A stretch of DNA of 32,000 nucleotides from Acaryochloris thomasi RCC1774. Lineage in GTDB: Bacteria; Cyanobacteriota; Cyanobacteriia; Thermosynechococcales; Thermosynechococcaceae. The stretch is from positions 1 to 32,000 of the forward strand of contig NZ_PQWO01000027.1 of the NCBI RefSeq assembly GCF_003231495.1. Reading direction: 5' to 3'. Made by a program: the position numbers and the translations under genes. Under the pieces are notes generated by a model. The model was given only the letters and a program-made list of their open reading frames with translations. It was not told where the DNA came from and made no database searches. This document shows, one piece after another, positions 10,178-24,886 of the stretch. Numbering within the stretch: the first letter of the stretch is position 1; each line of letters starts with the position of its first letter.

Positions 10178-13100
10178 ATGAACGAAACTGCCCTGGGGCG
10201 ATTTTGGGAGCTGCTGGGCTGGGTGCTGGCATTCAATGTTGATGCTTTTAGACAGCTTGAAACGATGCCGAAAGGATCGATCATTGTGCTGATTGTGGTT
10301 CTTTCAGCAGGGCTTTCGCAGGCGATTGCACACAGCGTGATTCTGTTTGCCAACCGCGTCAAGCCAGTCCGCCTCTTTTTCAGCTTGCTCATCAGCGCCA
10401 TATTGTTTGTGTTCGGCTACCTGTTTCTCGTATGCAGCACCTGGCTAATTAGCTTTGCTCCATTCACCGTTAAAGCGACTTTCAGCGATCTGGCGCGCAC
10501 CTTGGGCTTTAGCTATGCGCCGCTTGTGTTTAGTGCGTTTGGGGCCATGCCCTATTTTGGTGAACCCATTCTGGCAGCCTTATCACTGTGGCAATTATTA
10601 GCAATGGTCGTAGGCTTCGCGGCGATTAGCGGTGCTAGCCTATGGCAGTCTTTCGGCACCGTAGCTTTGGGCTGGGTAACGCTTTGGGTGCTGCAGCGTA
10701 CACTAGGGCAACCGATTGTTCGCTTAGGTTATTGGATTGCTTCTAAAGCAGCAGGTGTCGAACTCATTACTGACACCCAAAAGCTCAAAGATTTCTTTCA
10801 AGAGTTTCAACTATTTTCAACAGCGAAACCCACGTCAGCAAAAGTGGTAAAGCTCAAACGAAAACCATCTTCTGACCGCTACAGCTTACGCAATATTATC
10901 AGCGTTTCGATTGGCCTTCTAGCTCTCGCTGTGAGTACCCTCACTGCAGCGATTCTCTTGTCTCCGATCCGGCATTGGTGGTTTGCTTGGCATAATAGCC
11001 TGACTAACATCTTTGGACTCGCGTTCGACTTAGGCTGGATTGCCGTGACTGCTGTTGTGACCACCGCACTCCTATCGCCTTTAGAAGCGCTGCGCTGGTG
11101 GGCAGGTTGGGGCGATGTGTCCGATGTCTCCGCCGATACGAAAGCGCTCTCAGGTGTTCTCTCAGAGACACAGTTCCTGACCTCTGCCCAGTCTGCCGAG
11201 ACTCATGCTGCCCAAACTCAAAGAACGGCTGCCCGCTATATCGTTTTTCTGGACGGCATCAACCAATCGGAGTTTGAACATACGCCCGATGTTGAAGACT
11301 TTTTCGATGCGCTGGAGTCTGTTTTGTCAGAGGATGTGGTTCTAATCAAGGGCATCATGTCCTATTCAGTGCGGAACCGTCCGCTCACCATAAATCGTCC
11401 CTTATCATTTGTTTGGCGCTGGATTAACGCGTTTAGAATCAACCATCCTTCAAGCCTGTTCAGTTACTTCGTCAATATTCGCAACGCCTGGATTGTCGCA
11501 GTTTCTGCCGACAAGCGTTATGGGCCAATCTACAATCGGGGAATCGCAAAAGTGGTTTGTCAGACCTTGCTACAGCGGGGCTACCGTCCCGATAGTGGCC
11601 TTCCCATTACCTTGATTGGCTTCAGCGGCGGTGGACAAATGGCGATCGCAACGGCTTCACTCCTGCAGGGTGTATTGAAAGCGCCCATTGACGTGATTTC
11701 GCTAGGCGGAGTGATGAGCGGCAACATCAATATTCTTGAACTCGAACACCTCTATCACCTATCGGGTGAGAAAGATGCAGTTGAGCGCATCGGGCCGGTC
11801 ATGTTTCCAAAACGCTGGGCTATCTATTCTCTGTCTTACTGGAATCGGGCGAAGCGATTAGGAAAAGTAAGTCTCATTTCACTTGGCCCCGTTGGACATC
11901 AGGTCCCTGGAGGCATTATGGACCCCGATCAGAAATTGCCGGATGGTCGCACCCATTTGCAGCAAACAGTTGATCTAGTGACGGCCATTTTGCTAGAAGA
12001 TTCTGAGAGTCAGCGTAAAGGCCACTCAATACCGGAGCCTAAGCTGAGCGACTATGAGCGATACCGGGCGATCGCAGCTAATCGAGCAGAATCTTATCCG
12101 ATTCACCAGTCACTGCCGTCGGAATATTACCGAGAGATCGCACCCTGGATGGGACGGTTAATCTTACCGGCTCCAGAACGGCGGCAGCCCCACGGCGTTC
12201 TGTTTGAAGTGCATCATGCGCCTGATCGGTTTCAGCATCTAGTCAGCAAAATCGTGACGCTACAGCTAGATGACGAACCCGAAACGCGCTCATATGTCCA
12301 CGCCGTGAACAAAGACATACACTTCAGCCCCCAAGCCGAAGCCAGCGTCAGGGACGGTAACATTCATCCGACTCGGCTTAACCACTGGCGCTTGGTTAAC
12401 CCTTTAGAATCGCTCGCAGGTGCTCATCCGGTCGACGATGTAACGGTGATGTTGCCACGGTCAGTGACAGTTCAGCAGCATGGTGCTGAGCGAGAAGGGA
12501 AAAGCGCCCTATCACCGATTCTCGTGATCCAGCGTGAGCCAGTACAAATCACCGGACGCTACTACGGGCTAGTGCAATTCATCGGGCCAGTCGCAAATCC
12601 ACCAGAGCCGGAAAATGATGGTTTCAGAGTGATTCATTTCAACCGAGCCACAGGGCAATTTGACGGTCTTAAAGAGACGGTAAAGGTTCCTCAGACCCCT
12701 GTGAACTACAACGATACGAAGCCTTCCACCCGTAGAGGTCTCGAGAATTCGCCTTTAAATGAATTAGGGTGGTACATCTATGGTGCGCAGGACGACTCAG
12801 GACTGTTTGTCGTTCAGGCAATAGCGCCGCGCAAGCTGCTACAGGCCAAACCGGATCGGGTCTTGACTGGCAAGAAAGCCGCTCGAGAGTACGTTAAGAA
12901 AAAGGCCTGGAGGCACATAGAAGATAACAAAGGAACCGCGCGTTCTGCTTTGCTAAAGCCAGCATTTTCAGTTCAGACCCAAGGAACAACCTGGGCTGAA
13001 GGCCAGCGGGCCTTATTGATTCATGTATACGGCGGTATCGGTGGCAACAAAACTGAACCTGCCGCCAAAACACCGCTTTATTTTGGGCATTTTGTCTACG

Positions 13101-13837
13101 GTACGGCTGAGGTCGTTCGCGAACCGTTAACTGGCGAGCTGAGATTTGAGATCGTTTATCACCAAATTTATACTCAAAATTCTGAGGGGTTAACTGCCGG
13201 TAGCCTGCACTGGTCTCGCTATATGGGCGATCGCGCCTTTGGCTTTTTGGGACTGCGCCCGGTGGCTGATACTTTAATCAAGCTAGACGAGTTTGTCAGC
13301 GACTATCGTGGCGAAGGATGGCAGCGATCGCCCTTAGATTGCGTGATGTATGAACTCGAAATTATGGCGGCTCGCTATCGGATTGGCGACGGCACTGGCG
13401 CGACCTTCGTCGGGCCAGCCAACAATTGCGCCCAAGATGCCAATCAAGCTTTATATGCTGCGCTGCGCTATATCTCTGAATCGATTCGTACCCATCCAAA
13501 TATCGAGCAGTGGAAGCAGCAGCAGCCCGACCAGGCTCGCAGGCTTGATCGGTTAGAGCAATTTACCGAAGACTTTAAGCAGATCCTGCTCCCGTGGGGA
13601 ACAGCCCGCGCCGACTGGGAAAAAAGCGCAAACGTATTGGGCAGCACGTTAGGAGATCATCCTGTCCAAAATCTAATTCGCGGCTTAGTTACCTGGCGAA
13701 CGCTGCTGCCGCGTTTGGCCAGCGATAAAGTAACCGAAGCCTTTCTAAAAAGGGGAGGAGAAGTGTGGATACTTCAAACCATTCAGGTTGGTGGCGTTAA
13801 TCCTGACATTGAACCCGTAGCTCCCATGACGCTGTAA
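10178..13837 (+). CDS. 1219-aa multidomain membrane protein: Yip1-like polytopic N-terminus, alpha/beta-hydrolase-like middle, unknown ~600-aa C-terminus
   Basis: Single uninterrupted ORF with an ATG start. About 5 hydrophobic helices in aa 30-190 and 2 more around aa 235-300. Nucleophile-elbow G-F-S-G-G lies at nt 11618-11632, preceded by YIVFLDGINQ. The C-terminal half has no motif I recognise. Confidence 0.75.
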   Translation: MNETALGRFWELLGWVLAFNVDAFRQLETMPKGSIIVLIVVLSAGLSQAIAHSVILFANRVKPVRLFFSLLISAILFVFGYLFLVCSTWLISFAPFTVKATFSDLARTLGFSYAPLVFSAFGAMPYFGEPILAALSLWQLLAMVVGFAAISGASLWQSFGTVALGWVTLWVLQRTLGQPIVRLGYWIASKAAGVELITDTQKLKDFFQEFQLFSTAKPTSAKVVKLKRKPSSDRYSLRNIISVSIGLLALAVSTLTAAILLSPIRHWWFAWHNSLTNIFGLAFDLGWIAVTAVVTTALLSPLEALRWWAGWGDVSDVSADTKALSGVLSETQFLTSAQSAETHAAQTQRTAARYIVFLDGINQSEFEHTPDVEDFFDALESVLSEDVVLIKGIMSYSVRNRPLTINRPLSFVWRWINAFRINHPSSLFSYFVNIRNAWIVAVSADKRYGPIYNRGIAKVVCQTLLQRGYRPDSGLPITLIGFSGGGQMAIATASLLQGVLKAPIDVISLGGVMSGNINILELEHLYHLSGEKDAVERIGPVMFPKRWAIYSLSYWNRAKRLGKVSLISLGPVGHQVPGGIMDPDQKLPDGRTHLQQTVDLVTAILLEDSESQRKGHSIPEPKLSDYERYRAIAANRAESYPIHQSLPSEYYREIAPWMGRLILPAPERRQPHGVLFEVHHAPDRFQHLVSKIVTLQLDDEPETRSYVHAVNKDIHFSPQAEASVRDGNIHPTRLNHWRLVNPLESLAGAHPVDDVTVMLPRSVTVQQHGAEREGKSALSPILVIQREPVQITGRYYGLVQFIGPVANPPEPENDGFRVIHFNRATGQFDGLKETVKVPQTPVNYNDTKPSTRRGLENSPLNELGWYIYGAQDDSGLFVVQAIAPRKLLQAKPDRVLTGKKAAREYVKKKAWRHIEDNKGTARSALLKPAFSVQTQGTTWAEGQRALLIHVYGGIGGNKTEPAAKTPLYFGHFVYGTAEVVREPLTGELRFEIVYHQIYTQNSEGLTAGSLHWSRYMGDRAFGFLGLRPVADTLIKLDEFVSDYRGEGWQRSPLDCVMYELEIMAARYRIGDGTGATFVGPANNCAQDANQALYAALRYISESIRTHPNIEQWKQQQPDQARRLDRLEQFTEDFKQILLPWGTARADWEKSANVLGSTLGDHPVQNLIRGLVTWRTLLPRLASDKVTEAFLKRGGEVWILQTIQVGGVNPDIEPVAPMTL

Positions 13838-16753: not shown

Positions 16754-17818
16754 TCAAAATGGCAGCAACAACTGCATTCCCTTTGGCTTTCTGGCGGTAT
16801 CGGGTATCGGCTCCGGCACTTCTGCTGTTACAGAGCAATAGCGCTGATAACTACAGCGATCGCACTGTTCTCCTTTCTTCGGTCGCCATTCATCCTCTTT
16901 CTGTAGACTAACCGCTAGTTTTTCGATGAGTCGCTTTGACTCTTTTCGGTGCTCTGGAGTGACTTCATAGGTGACTTTCTCACCCGTCCGTAGGTAGATG
17001 AGACTGAGCTTGTGGAGAGCCTGCTGATAAGCCTGTTTGAGAAGTAAATCGTAGAGGCCCAACTGAATATCTACAGCATCCGGTGGGCTAACCAATTTTG
17101 TGGTCTTATAACCTACATTCCGCAGGTTAGTGAATTCTTGTAAGCCTTTTCCAGTAAAGGCTTTGAGCTTTATCCCGAAATTCAAGAATACCTCCCTCAG
17201 AGCGTTGAGATACAGGTGGCCGATTAACCTGTATTGCTTTTCCAATCTGGCTTCTAGAGAGTCTGTGATCTGTTTTTTCAGGTGATGCAACCTGGATTGA
17301 TGGAACAGAGCCGATTCTTGATAGGCCCTGTAACCCTTCTCTAGTATGGCTCCTAGAAAAGTGTACTACCTGCGGAATGTAGGTTATAATCAATCAGCTC
17401 TAATCCATCATCGACATAATCCAGACGATCGTATTGGCCCCGAATGACAAACTCGTAGTAGCCAACTCGAAAAGACCCCTTGATTGACTGCTCTACTCCA
17501 AGGGGTTTTCTCATCATCGGCATTGGCTCTACGTATCTCTCGTAGTACTCCTGCAGCATCCGCCAGCCGTCGTTTACTTGATTTGCCCAGGTCAACAGTG
17601 TGCGATTGCCAACACTGTGAGAACCACTCTAGGTTGGGGATGGGGTATGCATAGTTCCACTGCTCGTAGATATCTTTGAGTGCTGCGTGAACAGCTTTAC
17701 CCAGTGCAGGAGAACCAAAGACAGACTGTTCCTTCAATCCTCGTTCATAGCGGAAGTAGTAGGACTGGGGGCAGCTTTTGTATAGCTTTAGCCGAGTTGC
17801 TGAGATGGGGTAAGCCAT
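16754..17818 (-). pseudogene. PD-(D/E)XK (Cas4/RecB-like, Fe-S cluster) nuclease gene, disrupted by a frameshift and a MITE
   Basis: Three ORF pieces. The N-terminus has LYKSCPQSYYF (first Cys). The middle has GQYDRLDYVDDGLELIDY. The C-terminus has CDRCSYQRYC. The frame changes near 17590. The 17112-17383 insertion splits ELIDY|KTTK. Confidence 0.75.
17112..17383. mobile_element. 272-bp MITE with 15-bp perfect TIRs and a palindromic TTATAA target duplication
   Basis: CCTACATTCCGCAGG (17112-17126) and CCTGCGGAATGTAGG (17369-17383) are perfect reverse complements. They are flanked by TTATAA at 17106-17111 and 17384-17389. Removing the element plus one TTATAA joins the two ORF pieces in frame. 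Confidence 0.75.
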
Positions 17819-19676: not shown

Positions 19677-19877
19677 CTAAATGAAGCAATTTATCTTGTT
19701 GTTACTTGATCCCATCGGTCTACTGCAGGTTCTGTAGTACTTCTCATTCCACCTCGCCGAACACTCATCCAACTCCGAGATCGCCTCAATCTGCCAGAGT
19801 ATGTCAGCGAAGGTCATAGGGATCTTGCTCTTGTCGCTATCGGAAAGGGTGAGCACATAATCCTTACGAATACTCAA
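19677..19877 (-). CDS. small protein paralogous to an internal module of the upstream recombinase
   Basis: 66-aa ORF whose ATG overlaps the recombinase stop by 14 nt. DYVLTLSDSDKSKIPMTFADILWQIEAISELDECSARW aligns with recombinase aa 509-548, EYLLTLTYHEKDEISQIIGDMFWRMEMIAELDNCKVNCEW, with about 15 identities. Confidence 0.5.
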   Translation of the reverse strand: MSIRKDYVLTLSDSDKSKIPMTFADILWQIEAISELDECSARWNEKYYRTCSRPMGSSNNKINCFI

Positions 19878-22074
19878 GCTCCCTTAGGGCTTGATTCACC
19901 TCTTGTAGGTCAAAGGCTTTCGGGTCAAACTCGCTCCCAACCCATTCTTTCCGTTCCCTGTGATCACTATGTCGGGGATTTTTCAGCACCTTCAACAAAT
20001 GGGCATACCCCCAGTCCCCGCCACAGTCTTCCGGTGGACAAGCCTGCTTTCCGGCCAGACACACTGGATAGGTTTTCTCAGGCTCACTTGCTAGCCTTTT
20101 TTCTACCTCGATTTCGTGCTGCCACATATCACCAAGGTTGTATAGGTAGGAGAATGAAAACAACTCATTCCCAATTAACTCCGCTAAGGTAAGAGTCTCA
20201 TCCTCCTCGTCCTCATTGACCGAGAACTTGTGAAGATGGTAGCCCTCCCACCCCATCGCAGCTTGTACCACTGGATGAAGTTGGGCCAGCGTCATGACCT
20301 CTGACACTTGAAGCCGCCGCCAGACCTTAGGCTGGACTCCCAAAAGCGTAATTTTCAATTGATAGACGCTGGTTACATGGACTGCATCTAAAGAATCTTC
20401 TACAGCCGTAATTTTTGGACAGTCTAGCGGTTCCTCAGTAGAGGCCAGCTCCAGTACTTGATCCACCATCTCCCACTCACAATTCACTTTGCAATTATCC
20501 AGCTCTGCGATCATCTCCATCCGCCAGAACATATCACCAATAATTTGCGATATTTCATCCTTCTCGTGATAGGTCAGAGTTAGCAAGTACTCATTACCCC
20601 GAGGTTTCGTCTTCTGGCCTTGAACATCGCTGAACACCTGCCGCTCAATCTCCTTGCGGACCTTCGATTTTTTACGGCCTTCGACCCAGAGCTTGAAGCG
20701 CACCTGGGCCTGATGCTCAACGGCGGTGTCCCCATACCTTAAAGGCATCTGTAGCTTAAGCCCAGACTCCAGATCAACTAGTGCAGTCTCAGGAGAATTA
20801 ACCTCTTCCCTCTCCTGAGACTGTATATCTGGCGATTGTCCTTCTTCAGCAACCTTCACACCAAACATTTCCGGCATACCGTAGGCCAGCTCAAGCATTT
20901 GCTCCAGCGCCTCAATGTTCTCCTGCCAAAGCTCTGCGAAAGTAATGTCCCCATCATCAAACTCCACTTGGCCCAACGGTTCCTTTCCTGTCAACTGCAC
21001 CAATCCCCCCAGCAGCTTCCGCTGCTTCCTATCTAAAGACTTTGCATACACCAACTCCTTAGACTCTTCAATGGAGCGGTAATACGCCTCCACCGCAGCT
21101 TCCTGCTCCGCCCCCATCGTGTAGCGCCGAAACGATCTCTCGTCCGTGTGCCCCGTCAACCGCATCGCATGGGCCGGGTCCATGCCCTTCCGCAGCATCT
21201 CAGAAGCCCCCGTGTGCCGCAGCCGGTGGGGATGAATATCAGGAACCCCCGAGATCTCCCCAATCGCCTCCACCATCTGATAGACCCCCTGGTAGGACAA
21301 TCGCTGGCCGCCCCACCCGCGATGCTGAGAGAGAAACAGAGGAAAGTCAGGCTGCAGCTCCTCTCCCTGGTCTCGCCGCCAGTCTAAATACTCCGCTACC
21401 GCCTTCTGGCCCGCAGGGCTGAGGGGCACCAAGCGAGGCTGTTTATTCTTCGATATCGGAATCGAGATCAGACGCCCATCAAACGATCCGACATTGGTGG
21501 CCACCACCTCTCCGGATCGCATCCCACTGGCCAGCAAGTGCAGCAATGCCAGATCTCTCACTTGAGTACGCCCCCGCTGGACCACCGCCGCCCACACCTT
21601 CTCCATATTCTCAGCCGAGATATCCTGTGGCATCGGCACCGGCAACCGCTCGAATTTGACCCCCTCAGTCGGGTTCTCCGGGCACAGCTCAGGATGAAAC
21701 GTATTCAACCACCGAAAGAACGACTTGAGGGCCGTCAAAGCCGCATTGACGCTGCTCTTCGAGAGCGTTTTCCCCGGCTTAACCTCATGCTCCATCAAAT
21801 AGGCTTTGTACTGCCCCAACTGCCGGAGCTTCAGCTCAGACCAAGCAGAGTGGGTCCAGCCCAAAAAACGCTTCAATTCACGCTCATAGAGCTTCCGAGA
21901 GTTGGCTGCTAGATTGCTCGCTCTCAGAAACTCCTGCACCACCGGCCAGCGGATATCAGCAGGGGTCTCAATTTGCCGGGGCCGTCCCTGCCGTTGCCTC
22001 GATTCGGGCCTCTCCTCCGCCACCGGGATGGCCACCACCATTACTGGGGGAATTGACTTCGGAGCGATCGCCAT
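19864..22074 (-). CDS. tyrosine recombinase/integrase fused to a C-terminal PRiA4_ORF3 (plasmid pRiA4b ORF-3-like) domain
   Basis: SAM-like N-domain (track aa 60-140). Catalytic R200 (GMRSGE), H297xxR300 (HPHRLRHTGAS), H323 (LTGH) and Y332 (FRRY). The C-terminus has YQLKITLLGVQPKVWRRLQV...LAQLH.VVQAAMGWEGYHLHKF and PVCLAGKQACPPEDCGGDWGY...FDP.AFDL, the PRiA4_ORF3 hallmarks. The track start at 22116 is TTG. I prefer the ATG at 22074, which has GAGG 8 nt upstream. Confidence 0.9.
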   Translation of the reverse strand: MAIAPKSIPPVMVVAIPVAEERPESRQRQGRPRQIETPADIRWPVVQEFLRASNLAANSRKLYERELKRFLGWTHSAWSELKLRQLGQYKAYLMEHEVKPGKTLSKSSVNAALTALKSFFRWLNTFHPELCPENPTEGVKFERLPVPMPQDISAENMEKVWAAVVQRGRTQVRDLALLHLLASGMRSGEVVATNVGSFDGRLISIPISKNKQPRLVPLSPAGQKAVAEYLDWRRDQGEELQPDFPLFLSQHRGWGGQRLSYQGVYQMVEAIGEISGVPDIHPHRLRHTGASEMLRKGMDPAHAMRLTGHTDERSFRRYTMGAEQEAAVEAYYRSIEESKELVYAKSLDRKQRKLLGGLVQLTGKEPLGQVEFDDGDITFAELWQENIEALEQMLELAYGMPEMFGVKVAEEGQSPDIQSQEREEVNSPETALVDLESGLKLQMPLRYGDTAVEHQAQVRFKLWVEGRKKSKVRKEIERQVFSDVQGQKTKPRGNEYLLTLTYHEKDEISQIIGDMFWRMEMIAELDNCKVNCEWEMVDQVLELASTEEPLDCPKITAVEDSLDAVHVTSVYQLKITLLGVQPKVWRRLQVSEVMTLAQLHPVVQAAMGWEGYHLHKFSVNEDEEDETLTLAELIGNELFSFSYLYNLGDMWQHEIEVEKRLASEPEKTYPVCLAGKQACPPEDCGGDWGYAHLLKVLKNPRHSDHRERKEWVGSEFDPKAFDLQEVNQALRELEYS

Positions 22075-22217
22075 CTCGTTACCTCGCGGACCTTCTATAA
22101 TAGTGGCATATTTCAATAATAAATATTGGGCTAATATCTTAGCTATGACTAAACTATGACGAATAAGAGATGGTAAGATGATCTGAGAATCTAAAATCTA
22201 AGCAGCGAGAGGATTCG

Positions 22218-22433
22218 ATGCCCAAGAAGATTCGAGAGATCAAGGCTATGCTCAAGGAGGCTGGCTTCATTGTCCGGTCGGGAAAAGGGTCACACAATAA
22301 CTGGAAGCATCCCCGGTTGCCCCAGGTGATCACGGTGGCTCGTAAGGATGGAGCCGATGCCCCCCGCTATCTGGAACGAAAGGTTTCTCAAGCCCTGCAG
22401 CAGTTGAAGGAGTTACCCGATGACGCAGACTAA
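22218..22433 (+). CDS. hicA: HicA-family type II toxin (mRNA interferase)
   Basis: K.REI.A.L.EAGF...SGKGSHNNWKHP pattern, 71 aa, GAGG RBS. Overlaps the downstream hicB by 14 nt. Confidence 0.85.
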   Translation: MPKKIREIKAMLKEAGFIVRSGKGSHNNWKHPRLPQVITVARKDGADAPRYLERKVSQALQQLKELPDDAD

Positions 22434-22641
22434 GTATCGAATGATCATTGAATGGTCAGATGAGGATTCTTGCTTTGTGGTGTCTCTGCCGGACTTTGAG
22501 CGGGTGACGCAGCCGGTGACGGATGGCACCACCTATGAAGCGGCAGCTCGGCAAGGGCAAGAAGCGATTGAGTCCTTAGTGGATTTCTATGAAGCTGAGG
22601 GGTGGACTTTGCCCGTCCCGCAGACGTTGCAGGTGGCCTAG
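22420..22641 (+). CDS. hicB: HicB-family antitoxin (short form, no obvious DNA-binding extension)
   Basis: YRMIIEWSDEDSCFVVSLPDF....TDGTTYEAA...QEAIE......EAEGWTLPVP is the HicB/UPF0150 fold signature. Gene order is hicA then hicB. Confidence 0.85.
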   Translation: MTQTKYRMIIEWSDEDSCFVVSLPDFERVTQPVTDGTTYEAAARQGQEAIESLVDFYEAEGWTLPVPQTLQVA

Positions 22642-22645
22642 GACA

Positions 22646-23128
22646 ATGGCTCGGCCCCTGGCAGAGAAATGTCGGCGGTGTGCCAAGCTGTCGGTGACTG
22701 AAGCGAAGGAGAAGGACTGCTGGGCAGGGCAAGTCTGTCATGTTCGTCGTCATGGGTACCGGAATCGCGATCGCTACAACAAGCAGAAGAAAAAGCAGTA
22801 TGCCATTGCAACCGGCAAGATCATTCCAGAGATCACGGTGGCTGTACCTGCGACTCCGGCTGCGATTCTGCATCTGTATCGAGTGAGGGTGGATGCACCC
22901 CTCCATGCGATCGCCGCTGAACTGTGGATCGGGCAACAGCAGGTTGCGAAAGTTGAACCTGTGCATTGCCTGGGGTGGACAGGAATGCAAGTGAAACAGT
23001 ATTCGCGGGAGGTACTGAAAGGCTTTTCAGGTCAGCTTGAGGATGTTGTGCTGGACCGCTTTGAAACAACGGTGGAGTTGAATCCAAACCAGTGCCCGAT
23101 CCGTCCATGTCCTCTCCACCCTGAGTAA
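22646..23128 (+). CDS. hypothetical protein with an N-terminal Cys4 zinc-ribbon-like motif and a basic tract
   Basis: The ATG at 22646 lies 5 nt after the hicB stop; the track's 22589 start would overlap hicB. CRRC-x12-C-x5-CH is followed by RRHGYRNRDRYNKQKKKQ. The C-terminus has CPIRPCP. No family recognised. Confidence 0.6.
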   Translation: MARPLAEKCRRCAKLSVTEAKEKDCWAGQVCHVRRHGYRNRDRYNKQKKKQYAIATGKIIPEITVAVPATPAAILHLYRVRVDAPLHAIAAELWIGQQQVAKVEPVHCLGWTGMQVKQYSREVLKGFSGQLEDVVLDRFETTVELNPNQCPIRPCPLHPE

Positions 23129-23133
23129 TATTA

Positions 23134-23775
23134 ATGAGTGTTATTCAGCTAGAACTCGATCTTTGGCAGCAGCTTGCCGTAGCTGAGGAATACCCTGAGC
23201 AGACTAACGTTGAGCAGTTGTGCTTAGGGTTAGATCTGATGCTGACTCAGGTGTCTCCTAAGCGGCAGTTAGAGATGGCTGGGGAAGCCTTTCTACAGAT
23301 TGCTGAAGTCTTCAATCGTCGAGCGGATATGCTGCTCAATGATTGGAAGCAGGCTCACAGTGAGGAGGGGCCGGTGCTGGACTTGGGAGAGCTAGAGGTG
23401 CTGGTCCGTCAGTCGATGGTGTTTGATCTCGATGAATTGTTCGCTGAGCCTGAGCTTGTCACTAGGCGCACTTTCCCAAAAGAGGAAGGGGACTCTGTGG
23501 TTGCGATCGTGGAGAAAGAGGTGTTGCTTCAGGAGCTGGAGTTGCAGCAGCCGGAAGAGGTATTTGCTGTGATTGAGGAGGAAAACGTGGCGGCTTGGGT
23601 GGATGCGATCGCACAACGATTGCGGGCCAGGGGAGGTAGTGACTCTGCGATCGCACTGCAGCAGCACCTAGAGTTGTCTTGGGGACGGTTATGGCTGGGA
23701 CTGCTGCTTGGTGGGTTCGAGTTGGAGAGCGATCGCTTTTACAGTCGGGAAATTGAAGTGAGCTGTGTACGTTGA
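23134..23775 (+). CDS. hypothetical acidic protein with a conserved C-terminal SWGRLWLGLLLGGFELE module
   Basis: ATG 5 nt after the previous stop. 213 aa, very E/D/L-rich. The C-terminal 57 aa are paralogous to ORF 24154-24339. Any resemblance of this tail to kleisin (ScpA-type) winged-helix C-termini is pattern-level only. Confidence 0.6.
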   Translation: MSVIQLELDLWQQLAVAEEYPEQTNVEQLCLGLDLMLTQVSPKRQLEMAGEAFLQIAEVFNRRADMLLNDWKQAHSEEGPVLDLGELEVLVRQSMVFDLDELFAEPELVTRRTFPKEEGDSVVAIVEKEVLLQELELQQPEEVFAVIEEENVAAWVDAIAQRLRARGGSDSAIALQQHLELSWGRLWLGLLLGGFELESDRFYSREIEVSCVR

Positions 23776-24152
23776 CAAATCTCAAAAAAATCGAAGCATT
23801 GCTCAATCCTCTGGATACATCATCTACCGAGTGCGATGGTATGACTCGCTTATGCCATACTGTTCTCTCCAGAGAGTCGATAGAACACAGTGTTTACATC
23901 GGTTCATGTCGGGTAGAAAGCCAGGAAATTCCGCTTCACTTCTGGATAGAGCTGCTGGGGGAACACAAGGGGTACATCGTTGATTATCGTTTAGGGATGT
24001 GGATGCGCGATGTTGTGATTCAGGTTCCTCACGGGATATTCAAGGCCGACACATTCCGTCACGTCAGTTACCAGGGTGAGGCAATCGACATTCCCTATTT
24101 GCCAGAGCCACTCTTTCAGATTTTGTCGATGAGCGCTCCGCTTATCCAGTGA
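23772..24152 (+). CDS. hypothetical protein with transglutaminase/papain-like Cys-His-Asp spacing
   Basis: The TTG start overlaps the previous stop (GTTGA). C21 is followed by a helix (ECDGMTRLCHTVLSRESIEHSVYIG), then H56 in LHFWIEL and D71 in GYIVDY. This mimics C...GIPAR.V.G...HaWvE...GW..fD of transglutaminase-like cysteine peptidases. Confidence 0.5.
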   Translation: MTNLKKIEALLNPLDTSSTECDGMTRLCHTVLSRESIEHSVYIGSCRVESQEIPLHFWIELLGEHKGYIVDYRLGMWMRDVVIQVPHGIFKADTFRHVSYQGEAIDIPYLPEPLFQILSMSAPLIQ

Positions 24153-24153
24153 T

Positions 24154-24339
24154 GTGGGAGGAGATGCGATCGCACAAAGGCTAGCAGCCACCGAGAATGG
24201 TAGTGACTCTCTCGTCGCATTGCAGAAGCACCTAAAGCTATCCTGGGGGCGGCTGTGGTTGGGGCTATTGCTAGGGGGCTTTGTGTTGGAGTCGGATGGT
24301 GAGCACTTTTATGGTGGTGGGATCACTATCCGTTTCTGA
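24154..24339 (+). CDS. 61-aa protein paralogous to the C-terminus of the 213-aa protein (GTG start)
   Basis: Starts 1 nt after the previous stop. About 65% aa identity to aa 157-213 of ORF 23134-23775. The 15-aa core LSWGRLWLGLLLGGF is identical although 12 of its 15 codons differ synonymously. Confidence 0.55.
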   Translation: MGGDAIAQRLAATENGSDSLVALQKHLKLSWGRLWLGLLLGGFVLESDGEHFYGGGITIRF

Positions 24340-24886
24340 ATATCGCTGAAGTTGAGAGGGAAAGTTCAATACAACCAGACGCAGTAGGAGATGATCGCGT
24401 GTAGGAATCGATTGTCGTTTGTTGGCAATGCTCATCACCTAAACCTGGCATAGGCATGGTTAGGGTGCCATACCGAATTCCTTGAACAGTTCGGCACTGT
24501 ATCAGATGCATTGCTTAGATGATCGCTTCAGCCACCCTGGCCAACATTGCAGATCAACAAAACTGGAAACCCGTAATCAGTTGAGGGTTCTCATCTTTCT
24601 AAATACCTGCCCGCCTTTCTCATACTTTACAAGGCCACGATTTAGCATCTATATTTCAGCCTAAAGCATACTAAGCAGGCAACACAGGTAGGGCAAATCA
24701 CCACGAAATGACTTCAGCTTAATAAATATATCACTAAGAAATGTAACAGAAAGTTGCCTTAGTTAAGAATTTATGCAGATCCCTGATCCCGGTGCTAGCT
24801 TAGATGCTGATACCTAGTCAAAATCAATGTTCGCATCAAGGAGGCACCTACCTATGCTCTACATCTATCTAGTCTGAGGCTATCTC

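Follow-up and report, generated by a model that had tools for sequence, protein, structure and literature searches.

A short open reading frame behind a cyanobacterial plasmid gene as a probable displaced winged-helix tail

We analyzed a window of 32,000 nucleotides (nt), positions 1 to 32,000 of contig NZ_PQWO01000027.1 (C27) in the 5.9-Mb assembly of the cyanobacterium Acaryochloris thomasi RCC1774 (G000), in which the end of a gene for a 213-amino-acid (aa) protein, p213 (23134–23775, forward strand like all features below unless stated), recurs downstream as a 61-aa open reading frame (ORF; 24154–24339). The cargo gene p126 lies between this second tail and the in-frame one (p213 aa 157–213, 23602–23772). 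On balance, the 61-aa ORF appears to be the older winged-helix tail of p213, displaced downstream by recombination at the domain boundary, a reading that we hold with modest confidence. Recombination at that boundary would have put a different tail, together with p126, between the p213 body and its former end. We favour displacement because the in-frame tails of sister loci are foreign, at least four orphan tails have decayed, including the one at the orthologous site in a congener, an invariant Trp has been lost from the 61-aa ORF and this ORF is not called as a gene.

The two tails are an old repeat at the protein level. In a BLASTP alignment, p213 aa 157–209 and aa 4–59 of the 61-aa ORF are identical at 39 of 56 positions (70%, E = 2e-10), confirming the duplication that an earlier, sequence-only reading of this DNA had put at about 65% identity. 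Direct reading also bore out its observation that a 15-residue core, LSWGRLWLGLLLGGF, is the same in both tails and is encoded by different codons at 12 of 15 positions. The check it had proposed, the ratio of non-synonymous to synonymous substitution rates (dN/dS), came to about 0.10 over 55 aligned codons by the Nei-Gojobori method, with proportions of synonymous (pS) and non-synonymous (pN) differences of 0.72 and 0.21, respectively. Divergence is uneven: pS is 0.41 over the first 24 codons (5') and 0.94 over the remaining 31 (3'), and the copies are only 62–74% identical as DNA. Three core codons are identical where 5.1 are expected under genome codon usage (P = 0.14), which is the level of saturation and no more. 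Recoding in excess of saturation, such as selection against repeat identity might produce, was accordingly not significant and was set aside. Because dS is saturated, branch-specific tests have little power. By hand count, unique amino-acid changes against another p213 homologue, P0002, number about four in the in-frame tail and about six in the 61-aa ORF, with no clear acceleration. Gene bodies of p213 differ by a pS of 0.61–0.73 between C27 and its paralogues on contigs C23 or C36, and the synonymous divergence of the C27 tails is as deep as that between paralogous plasmid genes of the same genome; the age of the two tail lineages thus equals that of the paralogous replicons.

This codon pattern had been taken to show that the short ORF is expressed and selected now, a step that the data do not bear out. 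The dN/dS ratio does not date the loss of the gene body by the downstream copy and is therefore no proof of present selection on the 61-aa frame. Two old functional lineages brought together, as at the sister loci described below, can produce the codon signature with no need for selection to act on the short ORF. Under displacement, most of the divergence would have accumulated while both tails ended full-length genes, and the low dN/dS would be inherited from that time, perhaps topped up by gene conversion, with the 5' half of the alignment showing the lower pS.

Structure prediction indicates that the repeated unit is the folded C-terminal winged-helix domain of p213. An AlphaFold2 model based on 44 homologues consists of N-terminal helices, a disordered acidic linker and a C-terminal winged helix, with predicted local distance difference test (pLDDT) scores >90 for residues 1–75 and 152–210 and low scores for residues 80–150. 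Residues 152–210, which take in most of the in-frame tail, adopt the winged-helix topology H1-S1-H2-H3-S2-S3. A search of 48,161 solved chains with the p213 model returned matches confined to residues 149–213, many of them winged helices (VIA Z 8–9.2), and the repeat therefore corresponds to one whole winged-helix domain; matches to Z-alpha, MarR and Rpa2-WH aligned 56–64 residues at a root-mean-square deviation of 1.6–3. The constrained motif of the sequence-only reading thus belongs to a domain repeated as protein. The downstream copy starts at Asp157, so that the first turn of helix 1 is missing, including the family-invariant Glu150 and Trp155; modelled alone, it retains the winged helix-turn-helix (wHTH) topology with lower confidence (mean pLDDT 78.5).

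The suspicion that the unit behaves like a cassette was supported by the recurrence of the tail–cargo–tail layout with other cargo genes. The gene pair formed by p213 and its upstream partner p160 occupies five paralogous loci in this genome (C27, C36, C23, C31 and a truncated C37), and four of these have the layout. Between the tails lie a 145-aa protein of unknown kind at C36, a GUN4-domain protein (Pfam, 1.4e-31) at C31 and a 454-aa TPR protein at C37; C23 has neither insert nor second tail. At C36, the downstream tail differs from that of C23 by a pS of 0.46 and a pN of 0.10, the corresponding values for the gene bodies being 0.42 and 0.06. The in-frame tail of C36 differs from the C23 tail by a pS of 0.76 and a pN of 0.51, and is nearest to the tail of another homologue, P0007. 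The nearest backbone relative of C31, P0019, has a tail resembling the downstream and not the in-frame tail of C31. At C36 and C31, therefore, the downstream tail is native and the in-frame tail foreign, a foreign tail and a gene having been placed ahead of the native one. The event at C27 would be of the same kind. Mean pN is 0.38 among in-use tails versus 0.25 among native tails, and a possible benefit of the exchange would be that co-resident replicons gain more dissimilar tails.

Second tails are also seen to decay. The C36 orphan is broken by a 22-nt insert, the C37 orphan is degenerate, and in Nostoc FACHB-152 (L030) two cargo ORFs are followed by a tail remnant with a stop at the invariant Trp codon and a broken frame. 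At the orthologous site in the congener G430, p160, p213 (P0002), a 66-nt spacer and a homologue of p126 (104 aa, 69% aa identity) are collinear with C27 at a pS of 0.49–0.65 in every segment; p126 has therefore been in this p213 lineage since before the split of the two species. The same core follows 11 nt past the stop of the p126 homologue and leads into a 125-nt tail remnant of another subtype, with internal deletions and a broken frame, the first 38 nt of which are 92% identical to the C36 orphan. Orphans at this position can therefore decay, and since the C27 orphan differs in subtype from that of G430, a separate event or a later conversion is implied. Another congener, G431, carries a 67-aa orphan that is intact and belongs to the C27 subtype; it lies 3' of an ORF of 1154 aa, and p213 is absent over 8.6 kb around it.

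The cargo itself had been described as a 126-aa gene lying exactly between the two copies. An ORF of that length does lie there (23772–24152, from a TTG at 23772), but its start is probably the ATG at 23841, giving a 103-aa product (23841–24152), because the congener homologue starts at this point, 66 nt past the p213 stop in both genomes. Pfam and NCBIfam searches returned no match for p126; comparison with the protein Atlas suggests a likeness to small transglutaminase/papain-like proteins (TM-score 0.79–0.82). The C27 insert consists of the tail and p126 alone, and the stretch from p213 to the orphan yielded neither a promoter nor a terminator.

A number of observations sit less easily with displacement. 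The C27 orphan is intact over 58 codons and keeps nearly all conserved residues, only Trp155 being lost; its pN to functional tails, 0.22–0.29, is no higher than that among functional tails; and its GTG start stands one base past the cargo stop. At C27 both copies are of one subtype and equally close to P0002, so that either may be the native one. Intact tail-only ORFs with start codons occur in other genomes and are common in public data, and short forms keep 94% of the conserved residues versus 96% in full-length proteins. Breakpoints in distant relatives do not all fall at the core but also near positions 110 and 177–181 of the profile hidden Markov model (HMM). Finally, the C27 orphan may be older than the split between G000 and G430, in which case selection or repeated conversion would have to account for its unbroken frame.

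Several of these points are what one would expect if the short ORF encoded a functional winged-helix protein made of the tail alone. Its translation would be coupled to that of p126 (TGA-T-GTG), and it would compete with full-length p213 for the target of the tail or keep an old binding specificity alive. The intact frame with its conserved residues and the prediction of the lone tail as a wHTH agree with this, as do the start codons 1 nt (C27) and 8 nt (C31) past the cargo stop, and in an arrangement older than the divergence from G430, neutral decay should have broken the frame. Moreover, the C31 and C36 orphans are called as genes in the protein collection, where the C27 orphan has no gene call. 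Homologues of the short form exist elsewhere, as the sequence-only reading would have it: about 45 short proteins carrying the module came out of an exhaustive profile search of the database, 12 of which begin their homology at the junction (HMM positions 157–165), with other starts from 123 to 187 (a word-indexed search found none, a sensitivity artefact). However, many of these may be contig-end fragments or split genes, and detection is biased to well-preserved forms. The orthologous orphan of G430 and those of C36, C37 and L030 have decayed, the C27 orphan has lost two invariant residues of early helix 1, Trp155 and Glu150, and neither a promoter-like site nor a clear ribosome-binding site precedes it. 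Given its intact frame, its start 1 nt past the cargo stop and the intact tail-only ORFs elsewhere, the 61-aa ORF may be expressed and have a function, but we consider a tail-only protein unlikely. Two differing intact tail-only ORFs of 58 and 68 aa from Logan assemblies (P0108 and P0112), both beginning at the DAIA junction and each on a 1269-nt contig, may lie on one and the same contig as an array of orphan tails.

Breakpoints cluster at the boundary of the tail, a short core, GATGCGATCGC, which holds the HIP1 palindrome and forms the 3' edge of the block best conserved among the paralogues. In the window, the 15-mer GATGCGATCGCACAA, containing HIP1 (GCGATCGC), opens the in-frame tail at 23602–23616 and is repeated identically at 24163–24177, 10 nt past the cargo stop; in C36, C31 and G430, too, the cargo is followed by this core. 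Backbone alignments of the five loci in this genome all end at 23613–23615, inside the core. Codon-aligned identity among the paralogues reveals a homogenised DNA block just 5' of it (23500–23601), within which the last 12 codons are 75–97% identical in every pair, even in pairs that are 50–65% identical elsewhere. Right past the core identity is 24–50%, and in the pair of C36 and C23 it drops from 97% to 27%. Alignments to two congeners do not stop there but continue, less closely matched, through the tail. Five orphans (C27, C36, C31, G430 and G431) start 0–24 nt before the core, directly past the preceding stop codon, and that of Nostoc L030 at about the same residues.

Under displacement, paralogues on plasmids sharing the cell would have crossed over by homeologous or microhomology recombination, possibly aided by HIP1, and the junction, where the best-conserved block ends, is perhaps a hot region for exchange stimulated by HIP1. 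HIP1 has been described as acting on recombination/integration in a Chi-like way (bioRxiv 10.1101/2024.09.10.611283), and plasmid recombination at HIP1 and the insertion of SDR5 into HIP1 are cited in PMC4390886 and PMC5861425. The palindrome occurs 3324 times in G000; at the core it codes for Ala-Ile-Ala and may be there as codon bias alone. Imperfect HIP1 sites make up the cores of the in-frame tails of C36 and C23 and of the C31 orphan. Across 57 non-redundant homologues, extra codon conservation is confined to the HIP1 codons; as nothing else stands out near the junction across the wider family, constraint on the DNA itself was rejected. We also observed a 22-nt element, GGCCGAAGGCCGGTCGGAGACC, inside HIP1 sites (GCGAT^...^ATCGC, net +24 nt), of which there are 20 copies genome-wide, including one at the core of the C36 orphan (C36:20479–20500) and one near position 6,200 of C27 (minus-strand offset 45612). 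It resembles the SDR5 elements of Nostocaceae, here in a Thermosynechococcaceae-type genome. In the C36 orphan it breaks the frame; it is also found at about 2065–2090 of L021, where it adds eight in-frame residues to the p213 tail.

The core might instead be an attachment site for the linked tyrosine recombinase, with circles of tail plus gene integrating in the manner of integron cassettes and orphans left as a by-product. In other cyanobacterial genomes, a p160 homologue stands immediately 5' of p213 in 71 of 80 loci, several of them on named plasmids, and a tyrosine recombinase lies beside the pair in 49, about 50% identical to the N-terminal part of the recombinase in the window. ORFs 3' of p213 are hypervariable, 43 of them falling into 37 clusters, and the end of p213 therefore marks the edge of a conserved plasmid module. 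Capture by the recombinase would suit this linkage and this hypervariability, as well as the compact, promoter-less inserts and the six orphans that begin within 0–24 nt of one 11-nt core right past the cargo stop. However, a related recombinase is missing at C23 and C31; the region 24140–24345 shows no attC-like hairpin, its DNA fold scoring a z of −1.31 with 20 of 200 shuffles folding as well; inserts in this genome are single, and partial gene copies, rather than cassettes, make up the one array that was seen (G415, L105). Breakpoints of relatives also fall near HMM positions 28, 110 and 177–181, the extra codon conservation of the wider family lies at HIP1 codons alone, and the 5' block is homogenised over about 65–135 nt, which better fits homologous exchange. 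We regard site-specific capture as improbable. Just as improbable is a wider proposal in which recombinase, p160 and p213 would form a gene-capture platform, the HIP1-bearing core serving as attachment site for the exchange of a replacement tail plus gene between co-resident replicons, with displaced tails kept for a while as free winged-helix modulators.

The orphan could also act as DNA, as a silent cassette or a homology arm for swapping or deleting the cargo and in-frame tail with other replicons. Direct repeats do flank the cargo, conversion has left traces close to the core, and orphans of different loci are closer to each other and to the unperturbed C23 tail than in-use tails are. Yet conservation is at the amino-acid and not the DNA level, as the low nucleotide identity of the copies attests, no homology between loci extends beyond the tail, and passive occurrence needs no selection; such a role appears very improbable. 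Two further ideas were discarded. A cargo–tail fusion by +1 frameshift was suggested by the orphan frame, which overlaps the end of p126 by 20 nt, but the overlap is missing in C36 and G430; and orphans as the 5' end of a shared downstream segment found no homology past the tails.

Partial duplication of p213 is seen in other genomes as well. Within the same order, the module is present in 25 of 48 genomes and partial downstream copies are frequent. An Acaryochloris-type genome (G403, L104:3693–8070) carries a full p213, five unrelated ORFs spanning 3.4 kb and then its last 106 codons again, in a near-identical, 5'-truncated copy; such a partial duplication is of the kind described above but young, and the process is ongoing. 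In a metagenome-assembled genome (MAG) of the Elainellales (L039), two cargo ORFs are followed by an entire second p160–p213 copy in fragments. Arrays made of partial gene copies occur in G415 (L105), and in G419 and G415 tail fragments lie 57–66 nt past the full gene. Single-protein scans of genome contigs and metagenome contigs gave no match, and a second metagenome scan retrieved two loci, neither of which has a second tail. Two Nostoc-type p213 genes of G234 (L013:3436–3444 and L014:5469–5477) contain an insert of about 21 nt with two in-frame stops at the Ser-Ala-Ile junction, which splits off the winged-helix tail as a separate 68-codon frame. The closest relative of p213 by identity, from a Thermosynechococcaceae MAG (L021:1463–2206), has a frameshift at the VAIVEKE block that yields ORFs of 123 and 128 aa (P0010 and P0060).

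The p213 family counts 105 homologues, cyanobacterial without exception and nearly all 205–255 aa long. Its conserved upstream partner p160 (22646–23128), a Cys-rich, Zn-ribbon-like protein of 160 aa, has paralogues on C36, C23 and C31 and gave no match in Pfam and NCBIfam searches. Upstream of the pair lies a hicA–hicB toxin–antitoxin pair (22218–22641; hicA 22218–22433, hicB 22420–22641), also present at the C36 locus, whose two genes overlap by 14 nt as in a HicAB pair; HicA scores above its own Pfam cut-off (HicA_toxin, 3.1e-11), whereas HicB, at 22.1 bits, falls below that of HicB_lk_antitox (27 bits). On the reverse strand at 19864–22116 is a 750-aa fusion of a tyrosine recombinase (Phage_integrase, 1.5e-22) with a PRiA4_ORF3 domain (4e-58), the two joined by a linker of about 200 aa; Pfam sees only the general Phage_integrase and SAM-like domains in its recombinase part. 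Recombinases adjoining p160–p213 in Nostocales are about 340 aa long and do not carry the PRiA4_ORF3 domain. The window also contains adjacent parA and parB genes. Two neighbouring reverse-strand ORFs (16754–17290 and 17408–17818) each match one half of a PD-(D/E)XK/Cas4-like nuclease and probably represent a single gene interrupted by a stop or a frameshift. A forward-strand ORF of 1219 aa (10178–13837) has no match in Pfam or NCBIfam.

A purifying-selection signature between adjacent copies can thus arise without selection on the short copy, which calls for caution where small ORFs are called from dN/dS alone. Our analysis exposes a recurrent recombination junction in a widespread, uncharacterised gene pair of cyanobacterial plasmids, at which a winged-helix tail is exchanged and unrelated genes are gained. 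Should HIP1 or the linked recombinase prove necessary at the junction, the long-debated part of HIP1 in recombination could be tested on a natural example, and the acquisition of cargo by large cyanobacterial plasmids would become easier to study.

In comparison with known systems, the architecture of p213, an N-terminal helical domain, a flexible linker and a C-terminal winged helix, is that of the kleisin ScpA. The top Foldseek rows for p213 are kleisins (RAD21, Brn1, ScpA-C and Scc1-C), although these matches are weak (E 0.016–0.4) and no better than those of many other winged helices: Scc1-C reaches a VIA Z of 7.8 to the p213 tail, within about 1.4 of 40 unrelated winged helices. No ScpA family match to p213 was obtained in Pfam (E up to 1), NCBIfam or a PDB profile search, the last of which gave nothing relevant. 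No ORF of the window matched an SMC family, and no SMC partner was recognised there; the 1219-aa ORF had no match of any kind. Like the HIP1 sites implicated in plasmid recombination and SDR5 insertion, the C27 junction core contains GCGATCGC, and the C36 orphan has its SDR5-like element inside that HIP1; HIP1 may have a part in the exchange at p213 tail junctions. As in Xer-type plasmid resolution, large plasmids here pair a tyrosine recombinase with two small, conserved proteins beside parAB, p160 and p213 being putative accessory proteins. Integrative elements that replace the 3' end of their target (a tRNA, tmRNA or protein-gene attB) likewise restore the gene, leave a partial 3' direct repeat on the far side and have a tyrosine recombinase nearby. 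In contrast to their near-identical att sites, the p213 repeats span 170–180 nt and are synonymously saturated, the inserts measure 0.55–2 kb and carry no integrase of their own, and the imperfect attC hairpin of integrons was not found at the second C27 tail.

In polymorphic toxin loci, C-terminal displacement leaves orphan modules behind, as in the cdiA-CT/cdiI orphans and Rhs tips. The p213 module differs in being a winged helix and not a toxin, the genes that follow it (transglutaminase-like, GUN4, TPR and unknown) are not cognate immunity genes, and each p213 locus has a single orphan, with the host gene part of a recombinase-linked pair on plasmids. The layout is otherwise alike: a conserved body, a short junction motif and a variable C-terminal module that arrives with the following gene, while the 5'-truncated former module decays downstream. 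The same conserved body, junction motif, variable tail and truncated downstream orphan were all found at the p213 loci.

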